NCBI GenBank assembly: GCA_019057475.1
Contig: DXJO01000018.1
Location: forward strand, 1 to 64,000
Length of the DNA stretch: 64,000 nucleotides
Source: Candidatus Thorarchaeota archaeon
GTDB lineage: Archaea > Asgardarchaeota > Thorarchaeia > Thorarchaeales > Thorarchaeaceae
Direction: 5' to 3'
The notes under the pieces are model-generated. The model was not told the origin of the DNA. It did no database searches and saw nothing but the letters and a program-made list of their open reading frames with translations. Below are positions 43,776-64,000 of the stretch, in pieces. Each line of letters opens with the position of its first letter. Positions within the stretch are counted from its first letter, which is position 1. A program made the position numbers and the translations under genes.

Positions 43776-44834
43776 TCAGTTGGCTGCATCAGACACTTGC
43801 GCCTTGAAGCACGCAACTTCACGCCCGTCGCTCATCTTCAAGAGTTCAGGCTCCTTCTGACTGCACTCGTCACCCACAAACGGACATCTTGTATGGAACC
43901 TACAGCCGGATGGAATGCTGATTGGGTTGGGGGTCTCTCCTGTCAAGAGTATCCTGTTGCGTTCTACACCTATTTCAGGGACGGGAACAACGGAAACCAG
44001 TGCCTTTGTGTACTTGTGCATTGGCGAATCAATAATCTGCTTGGTTTCGCCTCTCTCAACTATCTTGCCTAGGTACGCTATCGCGATTCGGTCTGCGAGC
44101 TGTTTCGCTACCGCAAGGTTGTGCGTGATTATAATGATGGATATGTTCTTCTTCGCCCTAAGCTCCAAGAGCAAAGTAAGAATCTGACCGCGCATTGAAA
44201 CGTCCAGCATAGAAACCGGCTCGTCTGCTATTAGCAGATCTGGGTTTAGAACTAATGCGGCCGCGACCGCAACCCGCTGTCTTTGCCCTCCGCTTAGTTC
44301 GTGCGGCAATCGACCGACGAACTCATCTGGAGAATTTAGGCCTACATCCTCAAGAGCTGACCTCACTCGCTCGTCGACTTCGCATTCATCACGGCATATA
44401 TTGTGAATTCTAAGCGGCTCGGCGATAATGTCTTCAACAGTCATGTTATTGCTGAGAGAACCATAGGGATCTTGGAAAATCATTTGCATCCTCGTTCGGT
44501 ACTTCTTGAATTCTGATTCACTCATATCTGAAATCTTGTCACCGTCAAACCAAAGCTCCCCCTCTGTCAACGTTTCCAGTCGCATTATGAGCCTAGCGAT
44601 CGTGGTCTTGCCGCAGCCCGATTCGCCTGCAATGCAGAAGATCTCACCTCTCTTAACTTTCAAGTCTATGCCATCTACAGCACGGATGTATGTGGGCTCA
44701 GTTCTTTTGAAGATAGTTGAGAATAGTCCGCTTCTAACAGTGAACCACTTCTTGATGCCTCGTGCCTCCAATATTATATCTGACATCAGAACTCGTGCCT
44801 CCTCCAGCAAGCAACGCAGTGGCCATTCTCGCAT
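43776..44834 (-). CDS. Peptide ABC transporter ATPase, OppF/DppF-like (start probably 44786)
   Basis: [29 protein letters not shown]. Confidence 0.92.
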   Translation of the reverse strand: MREWPLRCLLEEARVLMSDIILEARGIKKWFTVRSGLFSTIFKRTEPTYIRAVDGIDLKVKRGEIFCIAGESGCGKTTIARLIMRLETLTEGELWFDGDKISDMSESEFKKYRTRMQMIFQDPYGSLSNNMTVEDIIAEPLRIHNICRDECEVDERVRSALEDVGLNSPDEFVGRLPHELSGGQRQRVAVAAALVLNPDLLIADEPVSMLDVSMRGQILTLLLELRAKKNISIIIITHNLAVAKQLADRIAIAYLGKIVERGETKQIIDSPMHKYTKALVSVVPVPEIGVERNRILLTGETPNPISIPSGCRFHTRCPFVGDECSQKEPELLKMSDGREVACFKAQVSDAAN

Positions 44835-45757
44835 TCAAGAGGTGGTACTTCCTGTCTACACCTGTCAACAGCGAAATCACACCTGGGATTGAATCTGCAA
44901 CCGCTTGGCGGATTAATGAGGTCCGGTGGATTTCCAGGAATGAAGTCTATCTCCTTATCGACTAGAATACTCGGAAATGATGAGATGAGTTTCTTCGTAT
45001 ACGGATGCTCAGGCATTGTGAAGATAGTATCAGTGCGGCCAGTTTCTACAATACGCCCTGCATACATTATGATGATTCTGTCACAAGTTTCAGCCAGAAC
45101 AGACAGGTCATGAGTAATCAGGAGGACTGATAGATTGGTCCTATCCCTCAACTGGTTAAAAAGGTCGAGAATCTGCGCTTGGACCATAACATCTAAAGCT
45201 GTCGTTGGCTCGTCCGCGATTATGATGGACGGATGGCAGACCAAAGCCAAAGCAATCATCAGGCGTTGCTTCATTCCACCGCTCAATTCATGGGGATATG
45301 AAGTGGCACGTGCAGGGTCGATTCCAACTGATTTGATCAACTCAAGCGAGCGCTCTTTCGCCTCCTGTTCTGTCACATCCTCGTGAATACGCAATGCAGT
45401 GATCATTTGGTCTATAGCCTTGTGGACTGGATTCAGAGCATTCATCGCTCCTTGGAATACCATGGAAATATCACGCCAACGAAGTGCTTCGACCTTTTTT
45501 GTATCATAGTCAAGTATGTTCTCGCCCTTGAATAGGATGACCCCTTCTTCCACCTTGCCCTCTTTGGGCAGCAAATGCATCAATGACAGCGCTGTAGTTG
45601 TCTTCCCGCAACCTGACTCGCCGCTCAGCCCTATGAACTCACCACGATGAATCCTGAAGCTAACATTCTCAGCTGCCTTCACTTTGCCCTGCTTGGTTTC
45701 GTAGGTGATTCGCAGGTTTTTCACCTCGAGGAAAACTTCGCGTTTTGTGTCAGCCAT
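44786..45757 (-). CDS. Peptide ABC transporter ATPase, OppD/DppD-like
   Basis: [32 protein letters not shown]. Confidence 0.92.
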
Positions 45758-45766
45758 GTCCTCGCA

Positions 45767-48523
45767 TCACCGCCTCCTCAATCGGGGGTTGGCAATCTCG
45801 TCCATGGCATATCCAAGCATGGAAACCCCCATCAACAGTAGAACCACCATGATTCCAGGTGGAAAGACCCACCACCAAAGATTCCCAGTCATTGCACCCG
45901 AGCCAAAGGCTTGGTATAACATTGTGCCCCAACTGACCATAGTTGGATCACCCAACCCAAAGAAATCAAGCACGACTTCAGAGAGAATCGCATAGGCTGT
46001 CACAAGAACTGTGTTGGCAACGATGAGCGGCGCTACTGCGGGGAGAATATGCTTAAACATGATGTAGGATTTGCTACCTCCGACCGCTCTTGCTCTCTCG
46101 ATGTAATCCCGCTCCTTAATTGTTAAAACCTGACCCCTTACTATGCGCGCAGTGGAAGGCCAAGAGAATATGCCTATGATAATAATCAACGAATAGACCG
46201 AAGGAGGAAGAATCGCACCAAGAATAATCATAATCACAAGACCAGGTATCACAAAGAAGATGTCGGTGAAACGCATCAAAAGCGAATCAGCAATGCCTCC
46301 ATAGTACCCCGCAAGCAGACCAATCATTCCTCCAATGAACATCGTAATCATTGTTGCGACTAGTCCGATGATGAGTGTGATGCGAACGCCGATGACAAGC
46401 TGACTGAATACATCTCGTCCAAGCTGGTCGGTACCCAAGAGATGGAACCCGGGAAAAGAGGTGGGATTGCCTGTAATTATCCACAATGAGGTCGTCATCA
46501 GAAGAGCAAGGCCCAAAGTCAGCATAGTCAAGCCGATAAGACGCTCCAAGGAGGGTCTCAACGCTGATTTTGTGATTTCTCTCAGTGCAGACCGCAAGTT
46601 GGGTAGTGCTAGAGCAAGACCTATCCCACCAAGCAAGAATGCACCTGCAGTGGCAAGAGAGCTTGCTCTAGCTAGCGAATGCGGAAGAAGGAGGATTGCA
46701 ACGTAAGCAAGAAAGGCTCCAATGAAAGCCCATTGAATTGAAGCAGAAATGTTTGGCCTATTACGATAGCTTGCGTACACCCACACCACGGCGCCTATCA
46801 CAAGGATAGCTAGACTGACATCTAGAAGAGCGGCTTGATCTAATGGTAGGGGTGTTGGGGGCTGTCGTGGTGTCCCTGTCAAATGGGCTGTGGGATCGTA
46901 TGGAGCAAGTATGTCTCCAAATATCGCGAGAGCAGCAAATGCGGAAACTGTTACTGCTCCAACAATGCCCATTTTGTTCCCTAGAATCTGCCTTACCATA
47001 GCGATTGTCTGCACCTGTCGATTCAGGAAGTAGCCATAAAGCCAGCCGGCCAATGATGTTATTGTAAGAAGAGGATGAGCGATGATGGAAGCTGACAACA
47101 TCAGGACATGTAACCAGCCCTCCAGCGATGACACGGGCGGAAACACGCTTGCGCCCACAAAGGTCGTGGCCCAAGATAGTACCCATTCCAGCCCATATGC
47201 GTTGGGCATCGCAAGTGCCACAATCATTACAATTGTGACAAACAGCACATTCAACGTTAGGACTAATTGCGATAGTCGAATAAGCAGCTGCGGCCGATGA
47301 TTCGTCCAGAGGTACGTCAGGTTCCCAGGTGAATAAAGCTTGGCTCTATTCCAAATGAACCTGAGGATATCTTGCCTTCGCACGAATACGAGGATGGCAA
47401 GTGTGCTAATCAGAAATAGTGCAGCATAAGAAGGTGCGAGGAGCAGAATAACAATGTCCAGGCACAGCAGCACTGTGGTTAAGTACGTGAAAGGGCGCAG
47501 AAACCACCCGAAAAACCCTCCCTTCTTCTCATCTGTGAGGGTGAACTCAGTTCCCACTCTGATTCGTGGGTCAAGCCAGTAGTACAGGAAATCAGCAGCA
47601 AGGTTGGCAAAGATCATAACCACAGTGATCACAAAGAATGTTCCCTGCAAAACGGGGTAATCCCTCCAAAGAATGCCGTCCCAGAGCAAACGTCCGATTC
47701 CGGGATATGAGAAAATGACCTCCACTTGAAGTGCACCAGCTACCGTGGCTCCGAGGTTCAGAGCTATGATAGTGGTTACAGGAATCATTGCATTTGGCAC
47801 GGCCTCTTTGTCCAGCTGATCCTTCTCAGTACGTCCTTTCGCTTTCGCTGTAATCATGTAGTCCTCACTAAGCACATCAAGCAGTGCATTTCTCATTATG
47901 AGCGCAAACACGCCAATCAAAGCTATTGTCAGTACACCCCAAGGTAAAATGAGTCGTCTGACGATTTCATAGGTAAAAAGTAAGGGATTACTAACGAAAT
48001 CTATGTTTGGGATAATTGCTGTTATCGGGAACCATCCAAGATTGACTGCGAACAGCATGATGAAGAACATAGAGAGGAAAAACGACGGAATGGAATAGGT
48101 CAGCAATGAGATGATTAGTCCAACGGCATCAGCACGCTCACCCCGTTTCCATGCAGAATGCTTTCCAATGTAGATGCCGATTGCTATGGAGGCAATGGTC
48201 GCAGGTAGAATGAGTAGCAGTGTATTGAGCAAACGGTGAAGTATCAATATTCCAACATCTGTCTGATATCGAAATGAGATACCGAAGTTACCTGTCAGGA
48301 AGTTGACAATGAATAGAAAAAACTGCTCAGGAAGCGGCTTGTCCAAGCCAAACGCTATGATGATTTGCTCCTGCGCAGCTTCAGGGATATTCGGGTTTCT
48401 GGCTAGGAATGTGGCAGGATCTCCCGGAAGCATATGGAAGAAGATGAAGTCGATAGCCAGTGCAATGAATATAGTAACAATGGCTTGTACGACTCTTTTC
48501 GCCAGTGTTCCTCTTAGACCCAA
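45767..48523 (-). CDS. Fused OppB-OppC ABC permease with extra TM segments
   Basis: OppB half (LPGDP, FGLDKP, AKAKG, RDYPVLQG, LDPRI) and OppC half (LGTDQLGRD, ARAVG, SWG, NPRLR) in one ORF. Confidence 0.9.
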   Translation of the reverse strand: MGLRGTLAKRVVQAIVTIFIALAIDFIFFHMLPGDPATFLARNPNIPEAAQEQIIIAFGLDKPLPEQFFLFIVNFLTGNFGISFRYQTDVGILILHRLLNTLLLILPATIASIAIGIYIGKHSAWKRGERADAVGLIISLLTYSIPSFFLSMFFIMLFAVNLGWFPITAIIPNIDFVSNPLLFTYEIVRRLILPWGVLTIALIGVFALIMRNALLDVLSEDYMITAKAKGRTEKDQLDKEAVPNAMIPVTTIIALNLGATVAGALQVEVIFSYPGIGRLLWDGILWRDYPVLQGTFFVITVVMIFANLAADFLYYWLDPRIRVGTEFTLTDEKKGGFFGWFLRPFTYLTTVLLCLDIVILLLAPSYAALFLISTLAILVFVRRQDILRFIWNRAKLYSPGNLTYLWTNHRPQLLIRLSQLVLTLNVLFVTIVMIVALAMPNAYGLEWVLSWATTFVGASVFPPVSSLEGWLHVLMLSASIIAHPLLTITSLAGWLYGYFLNRQVQTIAMVRQILGNKMGIVGAVTVSAFAALAIFGDILAPYDPTAHLTGTPRQPPTPLPLDQAALLDVSLAILVIGAVVWVYASYRNRPNISASIQWAFIGAFLAYVAILLLPHSLARASSLATAGAFLLGGIGLALALPNLRSALREITKSALRPSLERLIGLTMLTLGLALLMTTSLWIITGNPTSFPGFHLLGTDQLGRDVFSQLVIGVRITLIIGLVATMITMFIGGMIGLLAGYYGGIADSLLMRFTDIFFVIPGLVIMIILGAILPPSVYSLIIIIGIFSWPSTARIVRGQVLTIKERDYIERARAVGGSKSYIMFKHILPAVAPLIVANTVLVTAYAILSEVVLDFFGLGDPTMVSWGTMLYQAFGSGAMTGNLWWWVFPPGIMVVLLLMGVSMLGYAMDEIANPRLRRR

Positions 48524-48624: not shown

Positions 48625-50607
48625 TCAGCCTCTCCGTTTCATGTATACGATGCCTATGATCACGATTACAACCACAGCTATTCCAACGAGGGCAATCATC
48701 TCTATCGGGAACGCGGATGGCAAAAGGACATACACGTCAGCCTCAAGCCAAGACATCCAGTTCCAAATGGAAAAGATTCCTGATTCCCAGTCTGTATGAG
48801 CGAACTCCCATCTGTCGCTTCGATAGATTTCTAGGTCATTGAACTCCACAAGGATACAGACGCTGGCCTCATCATAGACAAGCTGCTGCATCTCATCGAT
48901 CAGGTCCTCACGTTCACTATCGTCAGCGAGCTTTTGCTCTGCATAGATTTCGTCTACGCGTGCAATGGAGAGTCCAGTCGGGTTAATCCAGCTCGGGGTT
49001 GTCATATACTGAGCGATGCTGTTGGGATCTGCTATCTGGGAATAGAACGTGACTGCCAGGTCGAAGTTTCGGCTACCCGCTGCGGTGTCAGTCACGAAGG
49101 TTGTTGTGTCAACTGCCTGAAGGGTTATGCCAAAGCCAGCAGCCTCAAGATCCGCCTCTATCAGTTGAACCATGCTCAGGTCAACCGGCGCGCCTGAAAC
49201 ATACTTCAAAGTAAACTCAAGAGCCTTGGTTGATCCATTGAGATCCTTTTCGTAGACCCCTCCGGTATTCTTAACCCAACCGTCCGCCTCAAGAGTTGCC
49301 ATCGCTTCAGCTGTACCAGCATCAAAGGTCACTAGTGCATTGTTGAACCATTTGAGTGTACTATGAACAACAGAGTCTGCAGGCTGAGCATGGTCCAGAT
49401 AGGCAATTTGAGCAATCTTTGTCTTGTTGATTGCCTGATTGATTGCCTTCTTGACCGAAAACTCACGCAACGCGAATTTGTCAGTCGTATTGCAGTAGTA
49501 CCAATCCTGGTCTATGAGTAGAGCTTCCCATCCAAGGAACGGGTTCTCATTGAGAGTAACTCCCTCAGTAGTTCCTAGAGACTCCAAGAATGGAGCTTCA
49601 GTTTCGCAGAAGTCGATTTCACCAGCCGCAAGAGCTTGTGTCATTGTTTCGATAGAGCTGTAGAACAGCACAGTAATGTTGTCGATGTTAGGGCGTCCCC
49701 ATTGATAGTCCTCATTTGCTTCAAGGAATGCGTACTCTCCGATTACGTACTCGGAAAGCTTGAACATGCCAGTGCCGACTTCTGGTGTGTCAAAGGTCGG
49801 TACAATAATGTTCCATGAGATTCCATCCCAGTTCAGGTAGTCCCAGTAGCCCCACGGGTCATAGCCGGTACCATTCAAACCCCACACGGGGTCGTTCCAT
49901 GTGATGGGGTCCCAGAGGTGCATCGGAAGTATTGGAACGTACGTAAGACCTGTAAGTAAGTACTCCTGGTTGACCTCGACAGGCGTACTATCGTATCGCT
50001 CATTCCAGTAATAGAAAGGAGCGCCAGCCATCCACGAATAGATGCTTGCGTACCCATTCTGCACGAAGTTAAGCACAACAGTATAGTCGTCAGGGCACTT
50101 GATGTTATAGTGATCGATGTGACCTGTTTGAGCTACCCACCAGCCCAACCATGTCCAAGTGAAGAGTGTCCAATTGACATCCGCTGACGTAAATGGAGTT
50201 CCGTCGTGCCATGTGGCATTCTGAACCAAATGCAAAGTCAGTTGAGTACCATTTTCAGCCCATTCCCAGGATTCTGCAAGGCCTCCCGTCACTCCCCAAT
50301 CATCATCCCAGCGCGTTAGCGGGTCATAGATCCAGTTGAAAAATTCCCATGAGGCTATGCTTCCCGCAAGAATTGGGTTCAGGTAGTCGGGCTCACCAAA
50401 CATACCCAGTTTGAATGGCTTTCCTGTTTCTTCTTCTTGCGCAACCACTTGCATCGGCGTATTGGCTAATACGGGTAGAACCATGGCCAGAACAAGAAGT
50501 AACGCGAGAATGTATTTTCGTCTTTTCACAAATATCACATCCAGTGAAGGACTGGGCTGAAATACACGGTGTACAATGATTAAAATCCACCGAACAACAG
50601 TGAACAA
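48625..50607 (-). CDS. Family 5 solute-binding protein with C-terminal membrane anchor (likely start GTG 50529)
   Basis: LNP, LAESWE, WHDGTPFTSADV, GTG.F; signal peptide and C-terminal TM. Confidence 0.9.
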   Translation of the reverse strand: MFTVVRWILIIVHRVFQPSPSLDVIFVKRRKYILALLLVLAMVLPVLANTPMQVVAQEEETGKPFKLGMFGEPDYLNPILAGSIASWEFFNWIYDPLTRWDDDWGVTGGLAESWEWAENGTQLTLHLVQNATWHDGTPFTSADVNWTLFTWTWLGWWVAQTGHIDHYNIKCPDDYTVVLNFVQNGYASIYSWMAGAPFYYWNERYDSTPVEVNQEYLLTGLTYVPILPMHLWDPITWNDPVWGLNGTGYDPWGYWDYLNWDGISWNIIVPTFDTPEVGTGMFKLSEYVIGEYAFLEANEDYQWGRPNIDNITVLFYSSIETMTQALAAGEIDFCETEAPFLESLGTTEGVTLNENPFLGWEALLIDQDWYYCNTTDKFALREFSVKKAINQAINKTKIAQIAYLDHAQPADSVVHSTLKWFNNALVTFDAGTAEAMATLEADGWVKNTGGVYEKDLNGSTKALEFTLKYVSGAPVDLSMVQLIEADLEAAGFGITLQAVDTTTFVTDTAAGSRNFDLAVTFYSQIADPNSIAQYMTTPSWINPTGLSIARVDEIYAEQKLADDSEREDLIDEMQQLVYDEASVCILVEFNDLEIYRSDRWEFAHTDWESGIFSIWNWMSWLEADVYVLLPSAFPIEMIALVGIAVVVIVIIGIVYMKRRG

Positions 50608-50616
50608 CCATGAACA
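50592..50616 (-). promoter_or_regulatory. TGTTCA-motif array upstream of the SBP gene
   Basis: (c)GAACA 50592, TGAACA 50601 and 50611: 10-bp period, adjacent to a TTTTAAT TATA-like box on the - strand. Confidence 0.6.
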
Positions 50617-50626
50617 TGGCTAGGCA

Positions 50627-51601
50627 TCATCGCTTCTTTACGCGGTACACAGCTAATGCCACGATGACAAGCAATGTAGCCGCAATGGCAACTGACTGTT
50701 CAAATGACAATCCCAACGTTGGAGGTGGAGTGGTTGATGATTCGAAACCCTCCACTAGCCACAGGGAGACCTTCATCATCATATCCCATTCGGAGCCCTG
50801 GTCATCAAACTCATTCTCCCAAATGCTGTTATCTCTCTGAGAGTCCTCCTCCCACTCTGGGTGAGGTCCAGAAAGGAACACGCGGCCAGAGTCGTATTCA
50901 AATGCGACCATTGCAGACTGGTTATTGACCGAGAATGTCGCCAGCGTGTGAATCCCATTTTGGCTCTCGCTTTCGAAGTAGGGTCCACCGTAGTACATGA
51001 CTGAATGCGTGGAGGGCTCTCCAGAGAAGTCGATGATATCCGAACTATGATTCACACTTATCTCGCACATATCGTAGTTTGGCCAGCTAGCAATCTCCTC
51101 GATTGAACCCACTCCCGTACCATCGAAGAGGTCAAGTGAATAATCATGGGTTGTTCCTTCCCAGGTGATCTTATCACAGGCAAAGTAAGCTCCAGCACAC
51201 ACACCAAAGAATGCGCCTCCCTCCCTCACAAACCGTCTAATCTCCGCAATTCCAATAGAGCCCAATTCATTGTTGTAGGTGACCGCCCAACCGCCCGGGA
51301 TGACTACCATGTCGTAGTTCGACAGTTTTCCGTCAATGATGTCTGAGGCATAGAGCAGGTCTGTACTTGCATTCATCCACTGAAACATGAATGTCAACGC
51401 GTTTCTACTACTCTGACTTGATGATTGGTCACCAAAGTAGACAGCCACGCTTACCCCTGAAAGGTCGATCCGATTAGCTGGTGTTTGGGCTTGAGTATTA
51501 GTGGCTAGAGTAAGAATGAACATTACTACAACTGCAAGTGCGACAAATGAGCGATAAGTTCTTGTGATGGCTTCAAGCTTCATTGAGAACCGACCGGACA
51601 T
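50627..51601 (-). CDS. Secreted, membrane-anchored BPL-N/class I GATase-like hydrolase
   Basis: IPGG, GVCAGAY (nucleophile Cys), YYGGP, SGPHPE (H-x-E); signal peptide and C-terminal TM. Confidence 0.8.
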   Translation of the reverse strand: MSGRFSMKLEAITRTYRSFVALAVVVMFILTLATNTQAQTPANRIDLSGVSVAVYFGDQSSSQSSRNALTFMFQWMNASTDLLYASDIIDGKLSNYDMVVIPGGWAVTYNNELGSIGIAEIRRFVREGGAFFGVCAGAYFACDKITWEGTTHDYSLDLFDGTGVGSIEEIASWPNYDMCEISVNHSSDIIDFSGEPSTHSVMYYGGPYFESESQNGIHTLATFSVNNQSAMVAFEYDSGRVFLSGPHPEWEEDSQRDNSIWENEFDDQGSEWDMMMKVSLWLVEGFESSTTPPPTLGLSFEQSVAIAATLLVIVALAVYRVKKR

Positions 51602-51656: not shown

Positions 51657-51725
51657 CTCTTGTTCAATCGTGAACACGGATGTTAGCACTCTTCATATCA
51701 TTGTTCATATCAAATACAGTACAGC
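51657..51725 (+). promoter_or_regulatory. Conserved 69-bp upstream element, copy 1
   Basis: Matches the reverse complement of 59031-59098 (47/53 identical over the first 53 nt); contains TGTTCA-N4-TGAACA. Confidence 0.8.
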
Positions 51726-51788: not shown

Positions 51789-53084
51789 ATGGTTGACGCC
51801 AAGGAAATCATGAAGAAAGACAAAGAGTACCTAGCAGCAGTCTATTCTCGTAAGCCAATCGTTGTATACGAAGGAAAGGGCGCAATTGTCAAGGATCTTG
51901 AAGGGCGAGAATATATCGATTGTTTGAGCGGCATCTCAGTTGTAAATGCCGGACATACGCCTGAACGCTTAGTGAGAGCAGGAACTGAGCAAATGAGAAG
52001 ACTCTGGCATTGCTCTGGCCTGTATTACAGCGTTCCTCAGACACTGCTTGCGGAAAAATTGGCCAGCATTGCACCGGGCGCACTCAGGAAATCTTTCTTC
52101 TGCAACAGTGGTGCTGAGGCGGTTGAGGGGGCTGTCAAGCTAGCAAAGAAGTTCGCGATATCTGAAGGTCGTACTGGAGCAGGTGTCATTGCCCTTGAGG
52201 GCTCATTCCACGGCAGACTTGCCTTATCTCTGACTTTGACCGGTCAAGCCAAGTACAAGAAAGGATTCGGGACATTCGCCAACCACCCGGGAGTTGTACA
52301 TGCTCCAGCACCCTATTGCTATCGATGTCCTCTGTCATATCCTGATTGTGGCGTTGAGTGTGCACGGAAGGTCGAGGACATCATCAAATACCACACAACT
52401 GGCGATGTAGCGGCGATGATAGTGGAACCAGTGATGGGTGAGGGAGGGATCATTGTACCGCCTGATGGATATCATGCAGAATTGCAGAAGATATGTCACG
52501 ACCATGAAATCCTCTTCATTGCGGATGAAGTGCAGACTGGCTTTGGCAGAACTGGCAAGATGTTTGCAAGTGACTTTTGGGACATCAAGCCCGATATTAT
52601 GACAATGGCGAAGGGGCTGGGGGCTGGCCTACCCATAGGCGCTGTGATGTATACTGATGAGATTGTGAGATGTTTGGTGTCAGGGGACCACTTCTCGACA
52701 TTTGGCGGAAATCCTGTTTGCTGTGCTGTTGCGCTGGAAAACATAGCATATTTGCAGGAAGAAGGGCTCTTGACCAATTCCAAGCATATTGGGAAGCTGC
52801 TCATGGAAGAGCTGCTATCCTTACAGCAGAAAAACGACATGATTGGAGATATCCGAGGAAAGGGGCTCATGATTGGCGTAGAGCTCGTGAAAGATAAGAC
52901 TTCCAAGAAACCCGCTGTTGAGCAGACAAAGAAGGTTGCAAAGGAAATGTTCAACAACAACATCCTGATAGGCACAGGTGGGGTCCACAGCAATGTCCTA
53001 CGCATACAGCCTCCGCTTTGCCTTTCAGACGAACAGGCCAAGAAAGTGTTGGACCTCCTAAAGGAGCAGCTGGGGGATCTCTAG
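51789..53084 (+). CDS. Class III PLP aminotransferase
   Basis: NSGAEAVE, SFHGR, EPVMGEGG, ADEVQTGFGRTG, MAKG, STFGGNP. Confidence 0.93.
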   Translation: MVDAKEIMKKDKEYLAAVYSRKPIVVYEGKGAIVKDLEGREYIDCLSGISVVNAGHTPERLVRAGTEQMRRLWHCSGLYYSVPQTLLAEKLASIAPGALRKSFFCNSGAEAVEGAVKLAKKFAISEGRTGAGVIALEGSFHGRLALSLTLTGQAKYKKGFGTFANHPGVVHAPAPYCYRCPLSYPDCGVECARKVEDIIKYHTTGDVAAMIVEPVMGEGGIIVPPDGYHAELQKICHDHEILFIADEVQTGFGRTGKMFASDFWDIKPDIMTMAKGLGAGLPIGAVMYTDEIVRCLVSGDHFSTFGGNPVCCAVALENIAYLQEEGLLTNSKHIGKLLMEELLSLQQKNDMIGDIRGKGLMIGVELVKDKTSKKPAVEQTKKVAKEMFNNNILIGTGGVHSNVLRIQPPLCLSDEQAKKVLDLLKEQLGDL

Positions 53085-55811: not shown

Positions 55812-57101
55812 ATGTCAGATAAGGGTGAAGTAGTTAAGGAGTGGATACGAGAGCATAGCGACTCGCTAATCACTCTGACTCAAGAACTAGTTCGCATCCC
55901 CAGCATCACCGGACACGAGTTTAATGTTCAGGAATACATCCTGAAGCGCTTAGATCGCCTAGGTCTCGAGCCATGGATGGTTCTGCCAGATGTCGATGTT
56001 TTAAGAAAGGACGCCGACTTCTTTGAAACATCGTCTTTCGTCAAGTATGGATACGAGAACCGACCCAACGTTGCCGGCATCCTTAAGGGGTCCGGCAATG
56101 GCCGGTCGATATGTCTTAGCGGGCACGTTGACGTTGTATCCCCAGAGCCCGTTGGCCAGTGGTCCTATGACCCTTGGTCTGGTGAAGTTGACGACGGGAT
56201 GATCTATGGTCGAGGGGCAGGCGATATGAAGGCAGGTATCGCCGCCATGATTATCGCATTGGAGGCAATCAGGAGGGCCGACGTCAAGCTAAAGGGCGAT
56301 GTTCATGTGGAAACGACAATTGAAGAAGAGGATGGTGGAGTAGGCGGCAATCTCTACATGAGACTGACGCAACCACGAACGGATGGTGCGATAAACCCCG
56401 AACCAACCAGCCTACAGATTGGCATGGCTAGTGCAGGAGTCATGTACTTTAGGGTAATTTCCTTCGGCGTCCCAGCCCATGCTGCCACTGCGCACTTTGG
56501 AGTCAACGCAATACACAAGATGCTTCCCCTCATTGAGGCGCTTCGAACTCTAAATGAAAGGAGACAACAGAGAATCTCCTATGCTTATGCCGAAGCTATG
56601 AGTCCTAGGATGAAAGGGCGAGTGACCACAATCAACATAGGAGTTGTTAGGGCGGGCGATTGGCCCTCAACAGTTCCAGGGACATGTGAGATAGAATGCA
56701 GAATAGGCTGGCCGCCCGGGGAAACCCGGGAGGAAGTGATGAGTGAAGTTGAAGAGTGCATAACAAACGCATATCAGAATGACTCATGGCTCCGCGACCA
56801 TCCTCCCAAGGTGGAGTGGTTCGGATGGCGGGCAAGGCCCCACGAGCAAGACGTCCAAGATCCGTTTGTCCTTTGCATAAGAAACCAAATTGCAAAGGCG
56901 ACTAAGAAAAGCCCAGTCCTGTACGGAGGTTCAGCAGGCCTTGATACGCGATTTTTCGTGAACCATGGCACTCCGGCTGTGACATTCGGACCTGCCGCGC
57001 AAAGAATTCATTCGTTTGATGAATGCGTGAGCATTGAGTCAATTGTGACGACAGCTGAAGTGATAGCTGCAACGATAATGGACTGGTGTGGTGTGGCCTA
57101 A
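55812..57101 (+). CDS. ArgE/DapE (M20) family deacylase
   Basis: GHVDVV, GRGAGDMKAG, EEE, EPT, HAA, H..DE. Confidence 0.9.
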   Translation: MSDKGEVVKEWIREHSDSLITLTQELVRIPSITGHEFNVQEYILKRLDRLGLEPWMVLPDVDVLRKDADFFETSSFVKYGYENRPNVAGILKGSGNGRSICLSGHVDVVSPEPVGQWSYDPWSGEVDDGMIYGRGAGDMKAGIAAMIIALEAIRRADVKLKGDVHVETTIEEEDGGVGGNLYMRLTQPRTDGAINPEPTSLQIGMASAGVMYFRVISFGVPAHAATAHFGVNAIHKMLPLIEALRTLNERRQQRISYAYAEAMSPRMKGRVTTINIGVVRAGDWPSTVPGTCEIECRIGWPPGETREEVMSEVEECITNAYQNDSWLRDHPPKVEWFGWRARPHEQDVQDPFVLCIRNQIAKATKKSPVLYGGSAGLDTRFFVNHGTPAVTFGPAAQRIHSFDECVSIESIVTTAEVIAATIMDWCGVA

Positions 57102-57152: not shown

Positions 57153-58994
57153 TTACATTCCAACTATCTTCGACATGCCTTTGGAGATTCCACTGAGGAG
57201 GTCCGAAAGGTTGGATAGTTCCTTCTCTATCTGTTGGAACACTCTGGATCTTTCTTGTTCCAGCTTCGCAAGGGGCTCATGAATCCTAATCCAGTTGTAG
57301 GGATTCTCCTTCTGCACTTCAAGTTTGGCGACAGAGTGATGCCCTATGTTCGCAATTGGCATGCCACGCAGAGCGCTAATTGCTCGGCTTAGGTCAACAT
57401 AATCGGCAATCATTTCCAAGCGAGAAAGATAGTCTACATCGTCAGGAGCCTTTTGCCGCCAGATCCAACCGATTGTTCTGTTAAGCGAGTTTGCAGTGGA
57501 AAGCAGGAACTCATTGATTGCCGCAATTCCGTTTGAGTCACTTTTCTCACTCACATCCTTTAGGGATTTCAAGAACTTCTGTTTCATTCCCGCAATCCGG
57601 TCCAGCTTCTTTAGGAGTGGTGCTAAGTCAAATGGACTATCCGTTCTTCTGCTATGTTCAAACAGAATTCCACGGAATCGCTCCAGAAGCGGGAAGATGT
57701 CAATTGGCAGCAAATCTGCGTTTGCTAGGCTGAGCAATGCCTTCCTAATGAACTCAGCAAAGAAGTGGACTGCTTGATAGTCCAAGTTCTCAGGACTGTC
57801 CTCTTGCGTGTGATACAACGGACTCGGGAATGACACACCGTACACTGAAGGGACACCGGAGATTTCAAAGAACCAGTGGTCACTACCATACGCTGGGGGA
57901 TCGTAGTAGTCTACTCGCGAAGCAATCTTTGAGCCGACTTTCAGATTCCTAACAAAATCAAGGAGTCCAGTCGTAGCAGCAATGTAGTTCTTAGCAGGAG
58001 TTGGATAGCCCACTGAATCCAACGATAAGAAGGAAGCGGCTTTCTTAACTATATCTTGGTTTTCCCTGACGAATGCTTTTGACCCGTTGCACCAGTAGTA
58101 GAAGTCCATAGAGCCGCTCTCCTCAGCCCCAAAGAATAGGAACCTAACCGTTCTCTTGAGCTCTCCTTCGTTTTGCCTATACTCATGAAGGAGCCTTGCG
58201 GTTTCGAGAACTATCGCCGCAGAAGCTGAATTGTCAGCGGCTCCTTGGAACCATGCGTCATAGTGGGCACCAATCAGAATCTCGTGGTCTGATGAGCCGT
58301 TGCCCGCCACTGTGACCATAAGATTGCGCGACCGTGCTTTCGCGGACCAGTCAACCTCTGTACGCAACTCAACGACAACATCATCCGACTCCAAAAGGTC
58401 GAAGAGAAACTCGCCATCTTCCTTGGATATGTTAATCATTGGTATCTTCAGAAGACTGCCTGAAGATATGACAACAACCTTGTGCAGATTGCCGTCATCA
58501 GGAGAGGAAACAATCAAGCCTTTGGCATCCTGATCTAAGGCATGGAAGTAGGCTCTCATCGGTCCAAGGTAAAGCTCTGTTCCCCACCTAACTAGACCAA
58601 TCGTGTCGCTATCTTTCTCTAGGATTCCGGAGTTGATTTGGTGAAAGGGCGCAAGTCGTCCCTTTATTTCTGCACCTTGTGAGTGGGGGAACACAACTGC
58701 CTTGATGTCCTTGCGAACCGGCTTGATGACCTTGAGTTGGCAATGTGTAGGTTGCCACCGATGAACCTCGAACTTACTCTCCTTGATTTTGGTGATTCCG
58801 AAGCTGGCAAGTCGGCTTTTGATGTATTCCGCAGCCTTCGCTTCACTCTCGGTCCCTGCAATCTTGTTTCCTATGGCACTAAGACCTTCAACGGTTTTCC
58901 TAATTTCGTCGATAGACGTCGGTTCCAAAGGTTCTCCTCCTCGCTCGTGGCGAGTCCAACTAGTGATGCGAGCTCTTCCAAAGCTAAACAGCAT
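57153..58994 (-). CDS. M28-family hydrolase, paralogue of 53112-54884 (likely start TTG 58928)
   Basis: GAHYDAWF.GAADN, FGAEESGS..FYYW.NGSKA and YGSDHWFFEISGVP shared with the paralogue; GGAGGAG RBS. Confidence 0.85.
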   Translation of the reverse strand: MLFSFGRARITSWTRHERGGEPLEPTSIDEIRKTVEGLSAIGNKIAGTESEAKAAEYIKSRLASFGITKIKESKFEVHRWQPTHCQLKVIKPVRKDIKAVVFPHSQGAEIKGRLAPFHQINSGILEKDSDTIGLVRWGTELYLGPMRAYFHALDQDAKGLIVSSPDDGNLHKVVVISSGSLLKIPMINISKEDGEFLFDLLESDDVVVELRTEVDWSAKARSRNLMVTVAGNGSSDHEILIGAHYDAWFQGAADNSASAAIVLETARLLHEYRQNEGELKRTVRFLFFGAEESGSMDFYYWCNGSKAFVRENQDIVKKAASFLSLDSVGYPTPAKNYIAATTGLLDFVRNLKVGSKIASRVDYYDPPAYGSDHWFFEISGVPSVYGVSFPSPLYHTQEDSPENLDYQAVHFFAEFIRKALLSLANADLLPIDIFPLLERFRGILFEHSRRTDSPFDLAPLLKKLDRIAGMKQKFLKSLKDVSEKSDSNGIAAINEFLLSTANSLNRTIGWIWRQKAPDDVDYLSRLEMIADYVDLSRAISALRGMPIANIGHHSVAKLEVQKENPYNWIRIHEPLAKLEQERSRVFQQIEKELSNLSDLLSGISKGMSKIVGM

Positions 58995-59030: not shown

Positions 59031-59098
59031 GCTGTACTACATGCTTATGAACAACGATATGAAATATGCTAACATCCGTGTTCATGATTGTACAAGAG
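59031..59098 (-). promoter_or_regulatory. Conserved upstream element, copy 2 (inverted)
   Basis: Reverse complement of 51657-51725; 18-bp identical core TGAACACGGATGTTAGCA. Confidence 0.8.
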
Positions 59099-59200
59099 CG
59101 TACGCTTCAAGTTGTTCAAGTCTGTTCAAGAGTGTTAGGTTTCTTTTTCTACATGTTCACATCATCGTGACCATTGATGCGATTCTGTGAGTAGACACGT

Positions 59201-59848
59201 ATGAATGACTCCGTCAATAAGCTAAAGGAAGCTGTTATCAAAGGTGACTACAAAAACACCCCTGACCTCGCCAGAGAAGCTCTCGAGGCAGGTGTATCCC
59301 CTATTGAGGTTCTTAAGAAAGGGATTACAGACGCGGCTACGATTGTAGGGGATCAGTTTGAGCGGATGGAGATATACCTCCCGGAGCTGATGATGTCAGG
59401 AAAAGCAATGATGGCAGGCATTGATGTCATTCTACCCAGGATTTCGTCTAGCGATGATGTAATCAAGGGCAGGGTCGTTGTTGGAACTGCGCTAGGAGAT
59501 GTACACGAGATTGGCAAGAACATTCTCAAGGTTCTGCTAATCGCTAGTGGTTTCGAGGTAAGCGACCTGGGAGTGAATGTTCCCACTTCCAAGTTTATTC
59601 AGGAAGCAGAGAGAATCAACGCAGACATAATTGCAATATCTGCCCTGATGACTTCCACACTGGGAGGACAGAAAGATGTCATCGATTATCTGCGAGAAAC
59701 AGGGAAACGTGACAAATACATCATAATGGTGGGTGGAGGTCCGACCAACAAGCAGTGGGCAGACACGATAGGTGCCGATGGCTTTGCAGAATCAGCTCCT
59801 GATGCAGTCAGGGAGGCAATTAGGTTGATCGAAGAACGGAGGGGATAG
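59201..59848 (+). CDS. Methyltransferase corrinoid protein (MtmC/MtaC-like)
   Basis: YLPELM cap, GDVHEIGK (DxHxxG), DLG..VP, SALMT, VGGGP. Confidence 0.92.
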   Translation: MNDSVNKLKEAVIKGDYKNTPDLAREALEAGVSPIEVLKKGITDAATIVGDQFERMEIYLPELMMSGKAMMAGIDVILPRISSSDDVIKGRVVVGTALGDVHEIGKNILKVLLIASGFEVSDLGVNVPTSKFIQEAERINADIIAISALMTSTLGGQKDVIDYLRETGKRDKYIIMVGGGPTNKQWADTIGADGFAESAPDAVREAIRLIEERRG

Positions 59849-59850: not shown

Positions 59851-61230
59851 ATGCTGCCTGTCATAGAGATAACAAAGCGGTGTCTTGAAGGAACACCATG
59901 CCTTGAGAGTGACTTTGACCTAGAGATTTTCGCACCTAGAGTCAGAGAGCTTGTCAAGGAATATGGCATAGCATATGACACTGATGTCATTGTGCCCTCA
60001 GACAACGGATTGGCGGACTCGGTGTTCAAGGCTGCCGTGGAATTGGTTGTTGATGTGGGGATGTTCTGCAAGGATACAGAGCGGATTGTCAAGTTTGAAG
60101 AGCAGGAGGTCCGGAAAGCAATCAAGACCGCTCAACGAGAAACCACCTTCGGTGAAGGCGAGGAACGGAGAACACTGCGCTCACGAACTCCAGAATCCAA
60201 GGACCACCCGTGGATATTCGCGGGAGCAGGAGGGGTGACAGTATCAAATGAAAACATCTTCATGCGACTTGTTGAAAACTATGCCAGAATGATACCGAAA
60301 GCCAATGCCATCACAACACCCTGTCTGCTTGAGGTGGATGGAATGAGCATTCGGGCGCGTTCGCCTCTTGAGATTGTGGGTTCAATTCGAACTGTGATGC
60401 TTGGCCGCGAAGCATTGCGAAGGGCGGAACGGCCAGGACTTCCCATTATGAATGGAATAAGCACTGCTGAATCGGCAGTTGCTCTTATCTCCGGATTGCA
60501 TCCTGATTTTGGGCTCAGAAAGTCAGACGGGTATATGATCTCCCTGTTAGCTGAGCTGAAGACAGACTTTGACCTGCTTAATCGTGCTGCACTGCTTCAA
60601 TCCATTGATGTCCCAATAGCCGGGATCTACGGGCCCATATTCGGTGGTTTCGCAGGTGGGGCTGAAGGGACTGCAATAGCATCGGTCGCGTTTCACATCC
60701 TAGCCATGCTCGCATATCGTGCTTCTTGGACCCTTTGTTTCCCCATCCATATCAAACACATTTCAAGCTCATCTCCTGAACTCATCTGGACCGCTAGTGT
60801 GTACTCACAAGCGGTTTCCAGAAACACTGAACTACCTGCGTTGTACTACCCCTACACCGCCGCAGGACCATGCACGGACATGGTTCTTCGGGAATTTGCC
60901 GCCCAGTTCATTGCGGCCATATCTTCAGGAGTTTCAATAGAAACAGGAGGCGTGGCGAAAGGAAAGTATTTCGACTATCTCACGCCGATTGAACCAATGT
61001 TCGGTTCAGAGGTTGCGTACGCAGCAGCAGGTCTAAAACGATCTGATGCAGATGATATGGTCAAAGAGCTACTATCCAGGTTCATAGAAAAAATCCCGAA
61101 CCCGCCGAAAGGGAGCAGGTTTCAAGAGTGCTGTGACCAGACAACAGGTAAGCCTTCAAAGAAGTGTTTCAGCATATACAAGAAGGTGAGGGATGAGGTC
61201 TCGGACCTCGGAATCGAGTTCTCCAGCTAG
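59851..61230 (+). CDS. MtmB-family methyltransferase lacking pyrrolysine
   Basis: 459 aa; KEYGI, VPSD..LAD..F.AA, RIVKF, SPLE, RPG, ELK.D, GGFAGG.EG, AGPCT; uninterrupted ORF. Confidence 0.85.
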   Translation: MLPVIEITKRCLEGTPCLESDFDLEIFAPRVRELVKEYGIAYDTDVIVPSDNGLADSVFKAAVELVVDVGMFCKDTERIVKFEEQEVRKAIKTAQRETTFGEGEERRTLRSRTPESKDHPWIFAGAGGVTVSNENIFMRLVENYARMIPKANAITTPCLLEVDGMSIRARSPLEIVGSIRTVMLGREALRRAERPGLPIMNGISTAESAVALISGLHPDFGLRKSDGYMISLLAELKTDFDLLNRAALLQSIDVPIAGIYGPIFGGFAGGAEGTAIASVAFHILAMLAYRASWTLCFPIHIKHISSSSPELIWTASVYSQAVSRNTELPALYYPYTAAGPCTDMVLREFAAQFIAAISSGVSIETGGVAKGKYFDYLTPIEPMFGSEVAYAAAGLKRSDADDMVKELLSRFIEKIPNPPKGSRFQECCDQTTGKPSKKCFSIYKKVRDEVSDLGIEFSS

Positions 61231-61270: not shown

Positions 61271-62470
61271 TTAATGAGAATGGCCTCGACCCGCTCCGTG
61301 CTGCTCACCGAAGTACAGAACAGCTGTGGCTTCGCCTTCTTCTCGGCTCATCTCCTCTATTCCGTCAAGACTTAGGAGACTCCGTATTAGCTTAATCGCG
61401 AGATCCTTTGTGACTGGGGTTCTAGATCTCACCTGAACCCGAACAAGGTCTCCATCCGCCGTGACATTGCATTTCTCAAGCAGCCCCGAAGATGTGACGT
61501 TCAGAGCTGACCTCCTGACCCGATCCAGAATAGTCATAGATACATCAGAACCAACCACATCTGGCTGAGGGCCAAAGTCCTTTATGCTAACTAGAGTTCT
61601 CTCTCCGATGGCATCATTGATTGTGTGAGTGGCCAACCACTCCAAGAGCGGCGGACAGAGAGTGGCACGTCCACTCTGACCGGCTTGCATGAGGAACCTC
61701 TCACGTCGGCTTTTCCAGGCTTCGAAGATTCTCCTGTCGCGGTTTCCTTTTAGAAACCGAAACTCGCGATCATCGACCCACCTTAAACTAACCTTATTCT
61801 CAGCAATAACTTCAACATCGACGGTATAGCCTGCTTCATCCCAACTTGCTAGGAGCAGGAGTAGAAGGGTTTCAGGCTGATTTCGCATCATCTTGATGGT
61901 AGCCATAACCGTTCTGCGATCCGAATAATCTTCAACAGACCTGAGAACTCCCATCGTTTCTAGCAACTGCACGTGGAGTACAAATGCCTCGTATGTATTT
62001 TCCCAAATTTCCTGAGGGACAGTGCCGAGTCTGCGCAGTAGCTTTGTCTGTTGAGTGCCAAGCTTGTCAATTCGATCCTTAAATTCGCTGGCTGAGAACC
62101 TTGTCTGTCCGAAATCTGACAGTGCATCAAAGAATGCCGACGCAGCAAGGCCCATGTCCGCAGCATCAACTAAGGAGGCCAAGAGCTTTGAGATAGCCTT
62201 GAATTCACAATCATCACAATCTGGTTGGTTTCGTCGAATGCTGTAATAGCCGATTGCTTCCTCAATGACTTCGTTAATGCGCCCAGTTTCGCCGCTTAGG
62301 GATTTTAGCAGATCTCTAGTTTGCGCTGACACAGTTGTATGGATGTGAACGCGAGGACCACCTTTCACATAACCACGAGGTGCTTCGTCCTGTGTGTTTG
62401 AAGTTTTTTTCATGAACACACTCACCGATTCATGTTCAAGATGGCTCCTCTTAATGTGGCATGTGAACAT
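61271..62470 (-). CDS. Putative transcription regulator: N-terminal RHH-like domain, CxxC and repeated ligand-binding-like domains (likely start 62413)
   Basis: VHIHTTVSAQTRDLLKSL...INEVIEEAI, CDDC; TGTTCA motifs surround its start. Confidence 0.55.
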   Translation of the reverse strand: MFTCHIKRSHLEHESVSVFMKKTSNTQDEAPRGYVKGGPRVHIHTTVSAQTRDLLKSLSGETGRINEVIEEAIGYYSIRRNQPDCDDCEFKAISKLLASLVDAADMGLAASAFFDALSDFGQTRFSASEFKDRIDKLGTQQTKLLRRLGTVPQEIWENTYEAFVLHVQLLETMGVLRSVEDYSDRRTVMATIKMMRNQPETLLLLLLASWDEAGYTVDVEVIAENKVSLRWVDDREFRFLKGNRDRRIFEAWKSRRERFLMQAGQSGRATLCPPLLEWLATHTINDAIGERTLVSIKDFGPQPDVVGSDVSMTILDRVRRSALNVTSSGLLEKCNVTADGDLVRVQVRSRTPVTKDLAIKLIRSLLSLDGIEEMSREEGEATAVLYFGEQHGAGRGHSH

Positions 62471-62547: not shown

Positions 62548-63303
62548 TCAATGGGAAGTAAAGCCTCCATCTACTACGACCACGGCTCCGGTCATAAATG
62601 TCGATTCATCGCAAGCCAAGAAAAGCGCTGCTTGAGCAACTTCTTCAGGTGTTCCAAATCGTCCCATAGGATATGATTTCGTTCGCTCGTCGCGGACTAG
62701 CTCTGCATTGCCCTGCTTCTCCAGTACCCTGCGTAGCATTGGAGTTTCTATTGCTCCAGGACAGATGCAGTTTACACGGATATTGTCTGTAGCCAGTTCG
62801 ACAGCCAAGGTCTTTGTCATCGCAATGACTCCGCCTTTTGAAGCCGAGTAGGCGGGAGAGAAAGAACCCACTAAACCCGCGACGGAGGCATTGTTAATGA
62901 TGACCCCACCGCCATTCTTGATCATCTCTGGAATAGTATACTTGCAGCAGAGAAACACAGATTTGAGATTGACATTGATTGATCTATCCCATTCCTCCTC
63001 TGTTGTATCTTTCAGATTCTTGACAACTTCAACACCTGCATTGTTGAACAGCACATCGATTCTGCCAAATGCTAGTGCCTTTTCGACTAGTTTCTTGACT
63101 TCACTCTTTTCAGATACGTCAGTCTTAACAAAGACCGCCTCTCTTCCTGTTTGTCTAATCGCTTCAATAACCTCAAGCCCCTTTTCTTGATCAATGTCAG
63201 CTCCCACAATCCTTGCACCCTCTTGAGCAAAGAGCAATGCTGCGGCCCTTCCGATGCCAGAACTGATTCCAGTTATCAAAGCCACTTTCTCTTCTAGCTT
63301 CAT
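62548..63303 (-). CDS. Classical short-chain dehydrogenase/reductase
   Basis: TGISSGIG, NNAG, YSASK, CPG, DGG; ATG at 63303. Confidence 0.93.
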   Translation of the reverse strand: MKLEEKVALITGISSGIGRAAALLFAQEGARIVGADIDQEKGLEVIEAIRQTGREAVFVKTDVSEKSEVKKLVEKALAFGRIDVLFNNAGVEVVKNLKDTTEEEWDRSINVNLKSVFLCCKYTIPEMIKNGGGVIINNASVAGLVGSFSPAYSASKGGVIAMTKTLAVELATDNIRVNCICPGAIETPMLRRVLEKQGNAELVRDERTKSYPMGRFGTPEEVAQAALFLACDESTFMTGAVVVVDGGFTSH

Positions 63304-63308
63304 CGTAT

Positions 63309-64000
63309 TCAGCCCATCCTCTTCTTCCAAAACTGACAAATCTCCAGAGGGGTTGCGAACCACACATCTTCTCGCGATTTCATGAGCTGGATTAGCTTCT
63401 CCAGCATCTTAGTTCTCGAAGGAATGCCGATTATTTGGGGATGCATTGCAAGCATAAAGTACAGCCCTTCGTCGTAAACCGCTTCGAATTCATCCGACCA
63501 TATTTCAAGGACCTTCCTGTGACTACTGATGCCGCTTTGGTATTCAAGAGGTGGGAAGTAGTTGAATCCAAAGTAAACCCAATCATCCAGTATCCAGCGA
63601 ATGGGAAGCTCTATAATCTTCTTATTTTCCGTCGCAATGGCGTACGGAACATCATCGCCCATCATGCTGCTATCGTAGATTAAGCCGTGCTTGGATAGCA
63701 GGTTAAGGGTGTTAGCACTCATGTCGGCTGCCGGCGCTCTGTATCCCATTGGCTTTTTGCCTGTAATCTCTTCCAGAACTTCAGTACCCTTCTCAAGTTC
63801 TTCCTTCTCCTCTAGAAGACTGCAGCTTGCAGGGTTTCTGTGGGAATATCCATGGTGTCCGACTTCATGTCCGTCCCCACTGATTTCCATCACGGTTTCC
63901 GGATATCTCTCGGCCACCTCTCCAGGGATGAAAAAGCCTGCCTTCAAATTGTGTGTCTTCAACAATCGCAGAATGCGGGGAACGCCTGCTTTGGGGCCGT
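63309..64000 (-). CDS. Polysaccharide deacetylase (CE4, PuuE-like), 5' end beyond the window
   Basis: G.PRIL, FFIPG, HEVGHHGYSH, GYRAP, YDSS, MHP. Confidence 0.88.
   Translation of the reverse strand, partial: GPKAGVPRILRLLKTHNLKAGFFIPGEVAERYPETVMEISGDGHEVGHHGYSHRNPASCSLLEEKEELEKGTEVLEEITGKKPMGYRAPAADMSANTLNLLSKHGLIYDSSMMGDDVPYAIATENKKIIELPIRWILDDWVYFGFNYFPPLEYQSGISSHRKVLEIWSDEFEAVYDEGLYFMLAMHPQIIGIPSRTKMLEKLIQLMKSREDVWFATPLEICQFWKKRMG

Follow-up and report, generated by a model that had tools for sequence, protein, structure and literature searches.

A candidate catabolic regulon for amide-rich compounds, with a pyrrolysine-free MtmB homologue as an accessory, in Thorarchaeota-type Asgard archaea

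Among the described systems closest to the gene island reported here is the methyltransferase and corrinoid protein pair MtmB1/MtmC of Methanosarcina barkeri (1L2Q, 1NTH), which depends on pyrrolysine (Pyl). A Pyl-free MtmB homologue, MtqB of Methanococcoides methylutens Q3c, demethylates tetramethylammonium and choline; it was reported as the first function for a Pyl-free MtmB, and unexplored homologues in Asgard archaea were noted in the same paper (PMC13044021, 2026). A Pyl-free MtmB of unknown role had appeared in a 2022 proteomic study (PMC9768040), MtmB has been mentioned for Sifarchaeia (PMC9723677), and a preprint has described Thorarchaeota as being without methyltransferases for methylated compounds (10.1101/2020.10.14.339440). 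The island comprises 15 genes at positions 43776-64000 of the window, by which we mean the whole stretch of 64,000 nucleotides (nt) that was analysed (positions 1 to 64,000 of contig DXJO01000018.1, assembly GCA_019057475.1, Candidatus Thorarchaeota archaeon), and its last gene runs on to 64133.

The methyl-transfer pair of the island resembles MtmB1/MtmC in its full-length homology, in the order of the gene pair and in its B12-binding partner. However, the M. barkeri gene has a UAG codon, whereas the gene described here has none and encodes Met200-Asn201 in place of Pyl202. The pair is like MtqB/MtqC in that a Pyl-free enzyme of the MtmB superfamily, with an active site remodelled to sulfur-containing or hydrophobic residues, is encoded next to its cognate corrinoid protein. 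MtqB itself is described as having a conserved Met-Cys/aromatic site. Compared with the published description of MtqB, the host here is not a methanogen, and the gene belongs to a peptide-type import and amide-hydrolase regulon, whereas MtqB belongs to a methylamine pathway. The non-Pyl MttB systems (MtgB for glycine betaine, MtpB, MtcB and MtyB) also pair a Pyl-free enzyme with a corrinoid protein, pass the methyl group to a pterin carrier and have their genes clustered with a dedicated transporter and regulator. They belong, however, to the PF06253 superfamily and not to PF05369, and their clusters contain BCCT or ProU-type transporters and no hydrolase set. Catabolic islands of the Opp/Dpp type with a local repressor, such as opine and peptide regulons, place an importer, hydrolases and a transaminase under one regulator, and they share with the present island an autoregulated regulator (here a candidate) and repeated operators flanking the core promoter. 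The present island differs from them in that its candidate regulator belongs to no described family, in an operator design that is here defined for an Asgard archaeon, and in having a corrinoid methyl-transfer module and a surface hydrolase of the GATase1 fold. The island is ordinary in kind but undescribed: neither it, nor its operator, nor the orphan protein discussed below was found described in the literature that we searched.

We consider it likely that the island is a self-contained, conserved catabolic regulon of Thorarchaeota-type Asgard archaea, in which an orphan regulator controls the import and dismantling of an amide-rich, peptide-like compound, with mtmC and mtmB (mtmCB) as an accessory. 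The substrate is probably N-methylated. A dedicated regulon is the best reading because the genes form one conserved unit and share a promoter and operator design that is exclusive to the island.

Four promoters of the island carry the same module. In promoter orientation, a TGTWCA/TGWACA box at offset 0 is followed by a second box at 10, a degenerate TGTTRG at 20, a T/A-rich TATA-like stretch and a last box at 41. The module ahead of the family-5 solute-binding protein (SBP) gene (P_SBP, 50571-50616, minus strand, beginning at 50616) reads TGTTCA-N4-TGTTCA ... ATTTTAAT ... TGTACA, with the central sequence as the TATA-like stretch, and is also present in relatives in the spacer between the surface hydrolase and SBP genes. 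The others precede the class III aminotransferase (AT3) gene (P_AT3, 51661-51707, plus strand, within a 53-nt element at 51657-51709), the solo M28 peptidase gene (P_M28b, 59048-59094, minus strand, beginning at 59094, orthologous to the module ahead of the relatives' solo M28 gene) and mtmC (P_mtmC, 59113-59159, plus strand, kept ahead of mtmC in 9/9 relatives read). When both strands of the whole 3.34-Mb genome were scanned by regular expression for the pattern box-N4-box-N24-27-box, exactly these four sites were returned, all in the island, where about 0.01-0.03 would be expected (about 0.013 per strand). Strict box-N4-box pairs number five in the genome, three of them in the island. Within the window, 558 nt of island spacers contain 12 boxes, compared with 50 for the remaining 63.4 kb, a 28-fold enrichment (Fisher p = 2.5e-13). 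In the orthologous spacers of nine loci in relatives, 48 boxes were counted over 2.85 kb, compared with a density of 0.80 per kb outside them (21-fold, p = 3e-42, an exact p-value that is generous because the spacer limits were set from gene boundaries after the pattern had been seen). The spacers before the mtmC, SBP, M28 and orphan genes show the same boxes at the same offsets.

A fifth promoter, that of the orphan gene (62413-62469, minus strand), has the boxes in another geometry. They lie at 62464, 62433 and 62413, that is, at offsets 0, 31 (inverted) and 51, and the last one overlies the start codon in the form TGTTC-ATG; this arrangement is conserved in five relatives' loci (L001, L003, L006, L008 and L031). 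An earlier note on the window, made from its sequence, had spoken of one motif shared by four upstream regions, which understates the case, as an identical module occurs four times and a fifth promoter has the boxes at other offsets. One operator is shared by several promoters of the island, is kept in relatives and is scarce in the rest of the genome, as a regulon requires.

The longest repeat of the region is an inverted pair of 53-nt elements (51657-51709 and 59046-59098) that are 89% identical. The two M28 peptidases share 50% identity. Their genes are an old pair, standing in tandem in most relatives, and the apparent 53-nt duplicate therefore corresponds to the promoter pair P_AT3 and P_M28. 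In genome G087 (locus L083, positions 1488 and 3387) the modules before the solo M28 gene and the AT3 operon are likewise near-identical (45/47 nt). The likeness of these two modules within a genome and their difference between genomes suggest that both promoters have evolved in concert. We also considered an RNA element, either a riboswitch or a small RNA, and rejected it: the 53-nt repeat had no Rfam match at an E-value of 0.1, and its folding z-scores of -1.2 to +0.9 were no better than those of shuffled sequences. The lack of both an Rfam match and a folding signal indicates that the conserved element acts as DNA.

Every gene family of the island recurs in relatives of the same GTDB family, at 45-76% identity and behind the same modules. 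In nine loci from metagenome-assembled genomes labelled Thorarchaeota, 'Promethearchaeota' or Hermodarchaeota, the MtmB homologue is 73-74% identical and the order surface hydrolase, SBP, permease, ATPases, mtmC, mtmB and convergent orphan gene is kept as far as the contigs reach. In four genomes (G248, G167, G087 and G120) the genes for AT3, M28, carbon-nitrogen (CN) hydrolase, M20 and/or CE4-SDR are syntenic and form one operon that adjoins the solo M28 and surface hydrolase genes; longer stretches of these genomes show a module ahead of each unit and contain the second M28 gene. The fifteen genes of the island are, by this comparison, a recurrent set that is rearranged here. The importer block and the AT3 operon are still divergent, which is the ancestral arrangement and is also seen in G120, and the solo M28 gene with its promoter is joined to the mtmC promoter. 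The earlier note had named a lack of conservation in relatives as grounds for giving up its proposal, and this is not what the comparison returned, all gene families being found again. The synteny that it had looked for across Asgard archaea and Bathyarchaeia holds for Asgard relatives of the same family; in the Bathyarchaeia loci, with up to 10 kb of flank, we saw the mtmCB pair and not the rest of the island.

The distribution was assessed in 300 genomes of the phylum, 76 of which belong to the GTDB family of the window and 224 to others. The orphan protein occurs in 16/76 genomes of the family and in 0/224 elsewhere. An MtmB orthologue (70-75% identity) is encoded in 14/76 family genomes, all 14 of which also have the orphan protein. 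Twelve of these genomes have the two genes side by side, and in G236 they are 2.7 kb apart; in G254 just a fragment of the MtmB gene is seen, at a contig end, the orphan gene being placed either beside it on the same contig or on another contig. Orthologues of the surface hydrolase and M28 peptidase were found in about 18-19 of 80 genomes. The full island was found in one Asgard family only, in about 14-18 of about 80 genomes searched, a distribution that makes it patchy and accessory.

The orphan gene was called as a 399-residue open reading frame (ORF) at 61271-62470 on the minus strand, and the family alignment places the true start at Met20 (62413), which leaves 380 residues (61271-62413). 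The 36 relatives of the protein are all unnamed and have no Pfam domains. Their alignment shows an invariant stretch with the elements RVH-H-TT, T-R, G-R-N and E-A, followed by P-x-C-x-x-C. The N-terminus (RVHLHTTIS-helix-helix) is conserved; the AlphaFold model of the monomer (predicted local distance difference test score, pLDDT, 68) has helices at 49-58 and 65-79 of low confidence and then two confident alpha/beta domains. The N-terminus would be compatible with a ribbon-helix-helix (RHH) topology, the strand of which needs a dimer partner. Its first 66 residues gave no Pfam match, and RHH models and the PDB returned nothing even at an E-value of 10. The top PDB matches in a Foldseek search of the protein were designed proteins with TM-scores below 0.3, and residues 104-240 compared with BcsD, H-NOX and Bet3/TRAPPC3 gave VIA-align Z-scores of 5.6-7.2, which is the range of chance arrangements. 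We infer that the protein is the regulator of the island, since it is strictly co-inherited with it, is retained in G120 and has boxes over its own start, and since the island has no further conserved gene for a regulator.

The MtmB homologue (59851-61230, plus strand) matches PF05369 with 321.2 bits (cut-off 25) over profile positions 3-450 of 450, and M. barkeri MtmB (1L2Q) with an E-value of 1.7e-65 over residues 10-457. Its ORF has no internal stop and thus not the in-frame UAG of a Pyl-dependent MtmB. The segment RPGLPIMNGIST aligns to RPGMGV-Pyl-GPETS of 1L2Q, so that Met200 and Asn201 occupy the position of Pyl202. All 18 homologues compared, down to 45% identity, have Asn201. The signature at this site, P-I-M-N, which most of the retrieved Pyl-free homologues share, is of the P-I/V/L-M-N type that is commonest among about 95 archaeal and bacterial homologues. 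The HMMER alignment has Ser, Met and Ile at the positions of Glu205, Glu229 and Glu259 of 1L2Q, residues that are said to line the methylamine site in the 2002 paper on the MtmB structure. This is the single MtmB homologue of the genome (96% complete), in which no PylS was found.

The corrinoid protein, which is MtmC/MtgC-like (59201-59848, plus strand; B12-binding and B12-binding_2 domains; TIGR02370, 203 bits), is encoded directly upstream, its gene ending 2 nt before that of the MtmB homologue, as befits a cognate partner. Elsewhere the genome has one MttB homologue and two RamA-like, four URO-D-family and three MtrH-family genes; the RamA-like, MtrH and URO-D proteins are possible downstream partners in corrinoid methyl transfer. 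The two RamA-like (RACo_C_ter) matches, at C40:105584-106345 and C47:95062-95823, have one in-frame stop each, TGA and TAG, which could reflect selenocysteine, split genes or errors. No subunits of carbon monoxide dehydrogenase/acetyl-CoA synthase (CODH/ACS), including CdhC and CdhD, were found in the genome, and this limits the idea of the earlier note that the pathway feeds C1 metabolism to the methyl branch, for which partner methyltransferases are present.

An alignment-based scan with one genome per species gave 79 loci with MtmB homologues. A corrinoid protein is encoded within 6 kb in 56/75 loci. Within the same distance of Pyl-free MtmB genes in other lineages are found MttB homologues (13 loci), saccharopine-dehydrogenase-like proteins (8), class III aminotransferases (7), aldehyde:ferredoxin oxidoreductases (5), major facilitator superfamily transporters (5) and creatinase/prolidase-like peptidases of family M24 (4), and SBP_bac_5 proteins occur at 6 loci with the Thorarchaeota group excluded. 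These recurrent neighbours point to amine catabolism, and to peptide-type import that arose more than once, and do not by themselves name a substrate.

The gene calls of the island are six-frame ORFs, with families assigned by Pfam, NCBIfam and PDB searches, and every gene listed in the earlier note was found in its place by Pfam and NCBIfam. They group into five or six transcription units. The importer is of the Opp/Dpp type and consists, on the minus strand, of an OppF-like ATPase (43776-44834; 69-73% identity in relatives) and an OppD-like ATPase (44786-45757; 66-76%), both with ABC_tran and oligo_HPY domains, a fused OppB-OppC permease of 918 residues with two permease domains (45767-48523; BPD_transp_1 twice, BPD_transp_1_N and OppC_N) and the SBP (48625-50607; SBP_bac_5 at 3.8e-52). 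Homology of the SBP in relatives starts at residue 23-24, and its gene probably starts near 50529 and not at 50607, which would leave a 97-nt spacer with the promoter module. Its nearest solved chains include NikA, AppA and DppE, at E-values of just 1e-21 to 1e-11, as well as AccA. Naming a ligand from these solved relatives was rejected, as they are too distant.

The surface hydrolase (50627-51601, minus strand, 324 residues; BPL_N at 9e-26) has an N-terminal signal or anchor, a Ser/Thr/Pro linker and a C-terminal transmembrane helix. Residues C135, H247 and E249 are conserved in an alignment of 50 sequences. The AlphaFold2 model (pLDDT 89) matched PdxT, HisH, GuaA-type and ThuA-like chains in Foldseek (E-value 4.5e-9, TM-score up to 0.80), so that the protein has a GATase1 fold with a Cys-His-Glu triad, and its homologues frequently carry type IX secretion tails or dockerins. 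On account of the triad, the modelled fold and the secretion tails, it would be an extracellular enzyme with glutaminase-type chemistry.

The AT3 operon (51789-57101, plus strand) is compact, with spacers of 18-27 nt. It encodes AT3, an omega-aminotransferase (51789-53084; Aminotran_3 at 2e-119; 68-73% identity in relatives), whose best NCBIfam matches, all under the cut-off, are acetylornithine/GABA aminotransferase families; M28 peptidase a (53112-54884; Peptidase_M28); an amidase-type CN hydrolase (54903-55793; CN_hydrolase at 2.7e-31; 63-71%); and a deacylase of the M20 ArgE/DapE family (55812-57101; Peptidase_M20 and M20_dimer; TIGR01910 at 296 bits, above the cut-off). The solo gene of M28 peptidase b (57153-58994, minus strand; Peptidase_M28), the nearest solved chains of which are the PA-domain aminopeptidases 2EK8 and YwaD, is convergent with this operon. 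Beyond the orphan gene, also on the minus strand, lie an SDR gene (62548-63363; adh_short_C2 at 6e-69; 61-70%) and a CE4 deacetylase gene (63309-64000, continuing to 64133 past the window; Polysacc_deac_1 at 5e-24), whose full ORF has 274 residues. The count of five cytoplasmic amide hydrolases from four families, as given in the earlier note, is reproduced by M28a, M28b, the CN hydrolase, M20 and CE4; no signal-like start was seen in the four readable N-termini, that of CE4 lying outside the window.

Taken together, the gene content and the operators are consistent with the following mechanism. The orphan protein would be a one-component regulator whose RHH-like N-terminus binds DNA and whose C-terminal domains sense a ligand. 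It would bind the boxes flanking the TATA element and the transcription start and thereby control its own gene and all the other units; the signal may be the substrate or a breakdown product of it. The surface-anchored, glutaminase-fold Cys hydrolase would trim the compound outside the cell, the Opp/Dpp-type transporter would import the trimmed compound, and the cytoplasmic M28, M20, CN-hydrolase and CE4 enzymes would cut its amide bonds. The omega-aminotransferase, together with the SDR, would act on the amine or alcohol so freed. If this yields an N-methyl or quaternary amine, the Pyl-free MtmB would pass the methyl group to the corrinoid protein, from which methyltransferases of the MtrH or URO-D type, encoded elsewhere, would accept it. 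As candidate substrates we considered methyl-lysine peptides, gamma-glutamyl amides, acylated dipeptide osmolytes, muropeptides and creatine-like compounds. A bolder statement, namely that archaea of the Thorarchaeota type use a Pyl-free MtmB to gain methyl groups from N-methylated residues in peptide-like material that they import, under a new Asgard-specific family of one-component regulators with a complete operator code that can be read from the genome, is in our view unlikely. On this reading, side chains of the methyl-lysine type, set free by the M28 and M20 enzymes, would be one candidate source of methyl groups; lysine-type downstream enzymes recur beside Pyl-free MtmBs in other lineages.

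Several observations weigh against a dedicated regulon of the kind proposed, or against parts of it. A peptide-like substrate is not established by the importer, because SBPs of family 5 also carry nickel chelates, opines and sugars. The orphan protein has no Pfam, NCBIfam or PDB sequence match, the fold search did not place it in a DNA-binding family either, and its match to CopG-like proteins in the protein atlas is weak (score 0.76). No box module precedes the CE4-SDR unit in this genome. Of the other genomes searched in the window's own genus, none has the island (0 of 4-6 per query), and only a 38% M28 homologue was found, in G301. Genome G120 (L084, C12:24000-42000) contains the importer, the hydrolase set, AT3, the SDR and the orphan gene, which there abuts the ATPase gene abcF with a gap of 36 nt, and has no mtmCB; the search of this genome, which is 85% complete, gave no MtmB. 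In the closed chromosome of G242, a distance of 1.38 Mb separates the importer island from mtmCB and the orphan gene, which stand beside a truncated remnant of abcF. These two arrangements imply that the methyl step may serve another substrate, and G120 implies further that demethylation is not obligatory and that mtmCB is a usual but dispensable accessory module. The regulon idea of the earlier note is borne out by the shared private modules and their conservation. The chemistry that it proposed is plausible, and its view of demethylation as an integral step is not supported. In L003 (CP070658.1, 8514-9233), which has the same 1.38-Mb split, the C-terminal two thirds of abcF lie upstream of mtmC; this truncated gene looks like a relic of a translocation of the mtmCB-orphan module.

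The same arrangements would be explained if the island served two functions under one regulator, with the core scavenging a compound that is amide-rich but unmethylated (such as peptides, cell-wall peptide fragments or an acylated dipeptide osmolyte) and mtmCB being a later addition for the demethylation of a different small amine, either quaternary or methylated, as with MtqB. Apart from the retention of the importer, all hydrolases and the orphan protein without mtmCB in G120, and the distant mtmCB of G242, mtmC has a promoter module of its own even where it directly follows abcF, and the sole characterised Pyl-free MtmB acts on free quaternary amines. However, mtmC shares its private module with the other units and would be switched by the same signal; mtmCB directly follows abcF in the eight relatives with a whole abcF, the ninth, L003, having the fragment; the island has no transporter of the betaine/choline type; and SBP_bac_5 genes and M24 peptidase genes stand beside Pyl-free MtmBs in unrelated bacteria, suggesting a real link of these enzymes to peptide-type import. 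We regard two separate functions as unlikely. A dedicated regulator would be superfluous if the shared sequence were just a promoter duplicated by gene duplication or conversion, with the orphan protein otherwise employed. The 89% identity of the 53-nt copies, compared with 50% between the adjacent M28 paralogues, would fit recent copying, and no DNA-binding domain was verified in the orphan protein, but it is the box positions and not the spacer sequence that are conserved, across four non-homologous promoters and in relatives at 50-75% protein identity. The conserved box set over the orphan gene's own start and the strict co-inheritance of its product with the island also speak against mere duplication, which makes it very unlikely. 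Finally, the MtmB homologue and its corrinoid protein might run in reverse, or act on a non-amine substrate such as a methyl thiol or ether, and so modify the imported compound. The replacement of the acidic residues around Pyl by Ser, Met and Ile would allow for this; yet all characterised members of MtmB, MttB and MtbB, with or without Pyl, take methyl groups from amines, and the neighbours in other lineages (MttB, class III aminotransferases, saccharopine-dehydrogenase-like proteins and aldehyde:ferredoxin oxidoreductases) are amine-catabolic, so that such a role appears highly improbable.

A dedicated catabolic regulon offers a complete and experimentally tractable candidate pair of regulator and operator in an Asgard archaeon, with one orphan protein, five promoters and exact box positions. 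To our knowledge, few transcription-factor circuits have been defined in Asgard archaea. The Pyl-free MtmBs, a large clade with a single characterised member, gain a defined metabolic context, and the context of the island narrows the search for a substrate to what peptide-type import and amide hydrolysis would yield. The suggested pathway is a possible route by which Asgard archaea of sediments draw methyl groups from necromass-derived compounds. The presence of the MtmB homologue is at odds with the statement that Thorarchaeota are without such methyltransferases (bioRxiv 10.1101/2020.10.14.339440).

The limits of the island are set at 43776 and 64133 because the genes on either flank are unrelated to it. 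On the left, at 42226-43684, lie four small DsrE/DsrF/DsrH-like genes of the sulfur-relay (TusBCD) type, and on the right genes for a leucine-rich repeat protein, a thioredoxin-like protein and a PAS histidine kinase. Other sites in the genome with at least three boxes mostly fall inside coding ORFs or belong to tandem repeats at the ends of contigs and, with two exceptions, were taken as chance. About 9 kb past the end of the window (C51 73261-73317; L080 10261-10317), three TGTTCA boxes with non-canonical spacing lie in an intergenic region upstream of a gene for a pyridine-nucleotide-disulphide oxidoreductase and are possibly a stray member of the regulon or chance. A strict TGAACA-N4-TGAACA pair at about 12136 of C24 is found at an ORF start and is the sole pair outside the island that is not clearly within a long gene. 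Tandem repeats with many TGTTCA at the ends of contigs C4 (7353-7520) and C27 (at its start) are unrelated to the operator and probably explain the breaks in the assembly.

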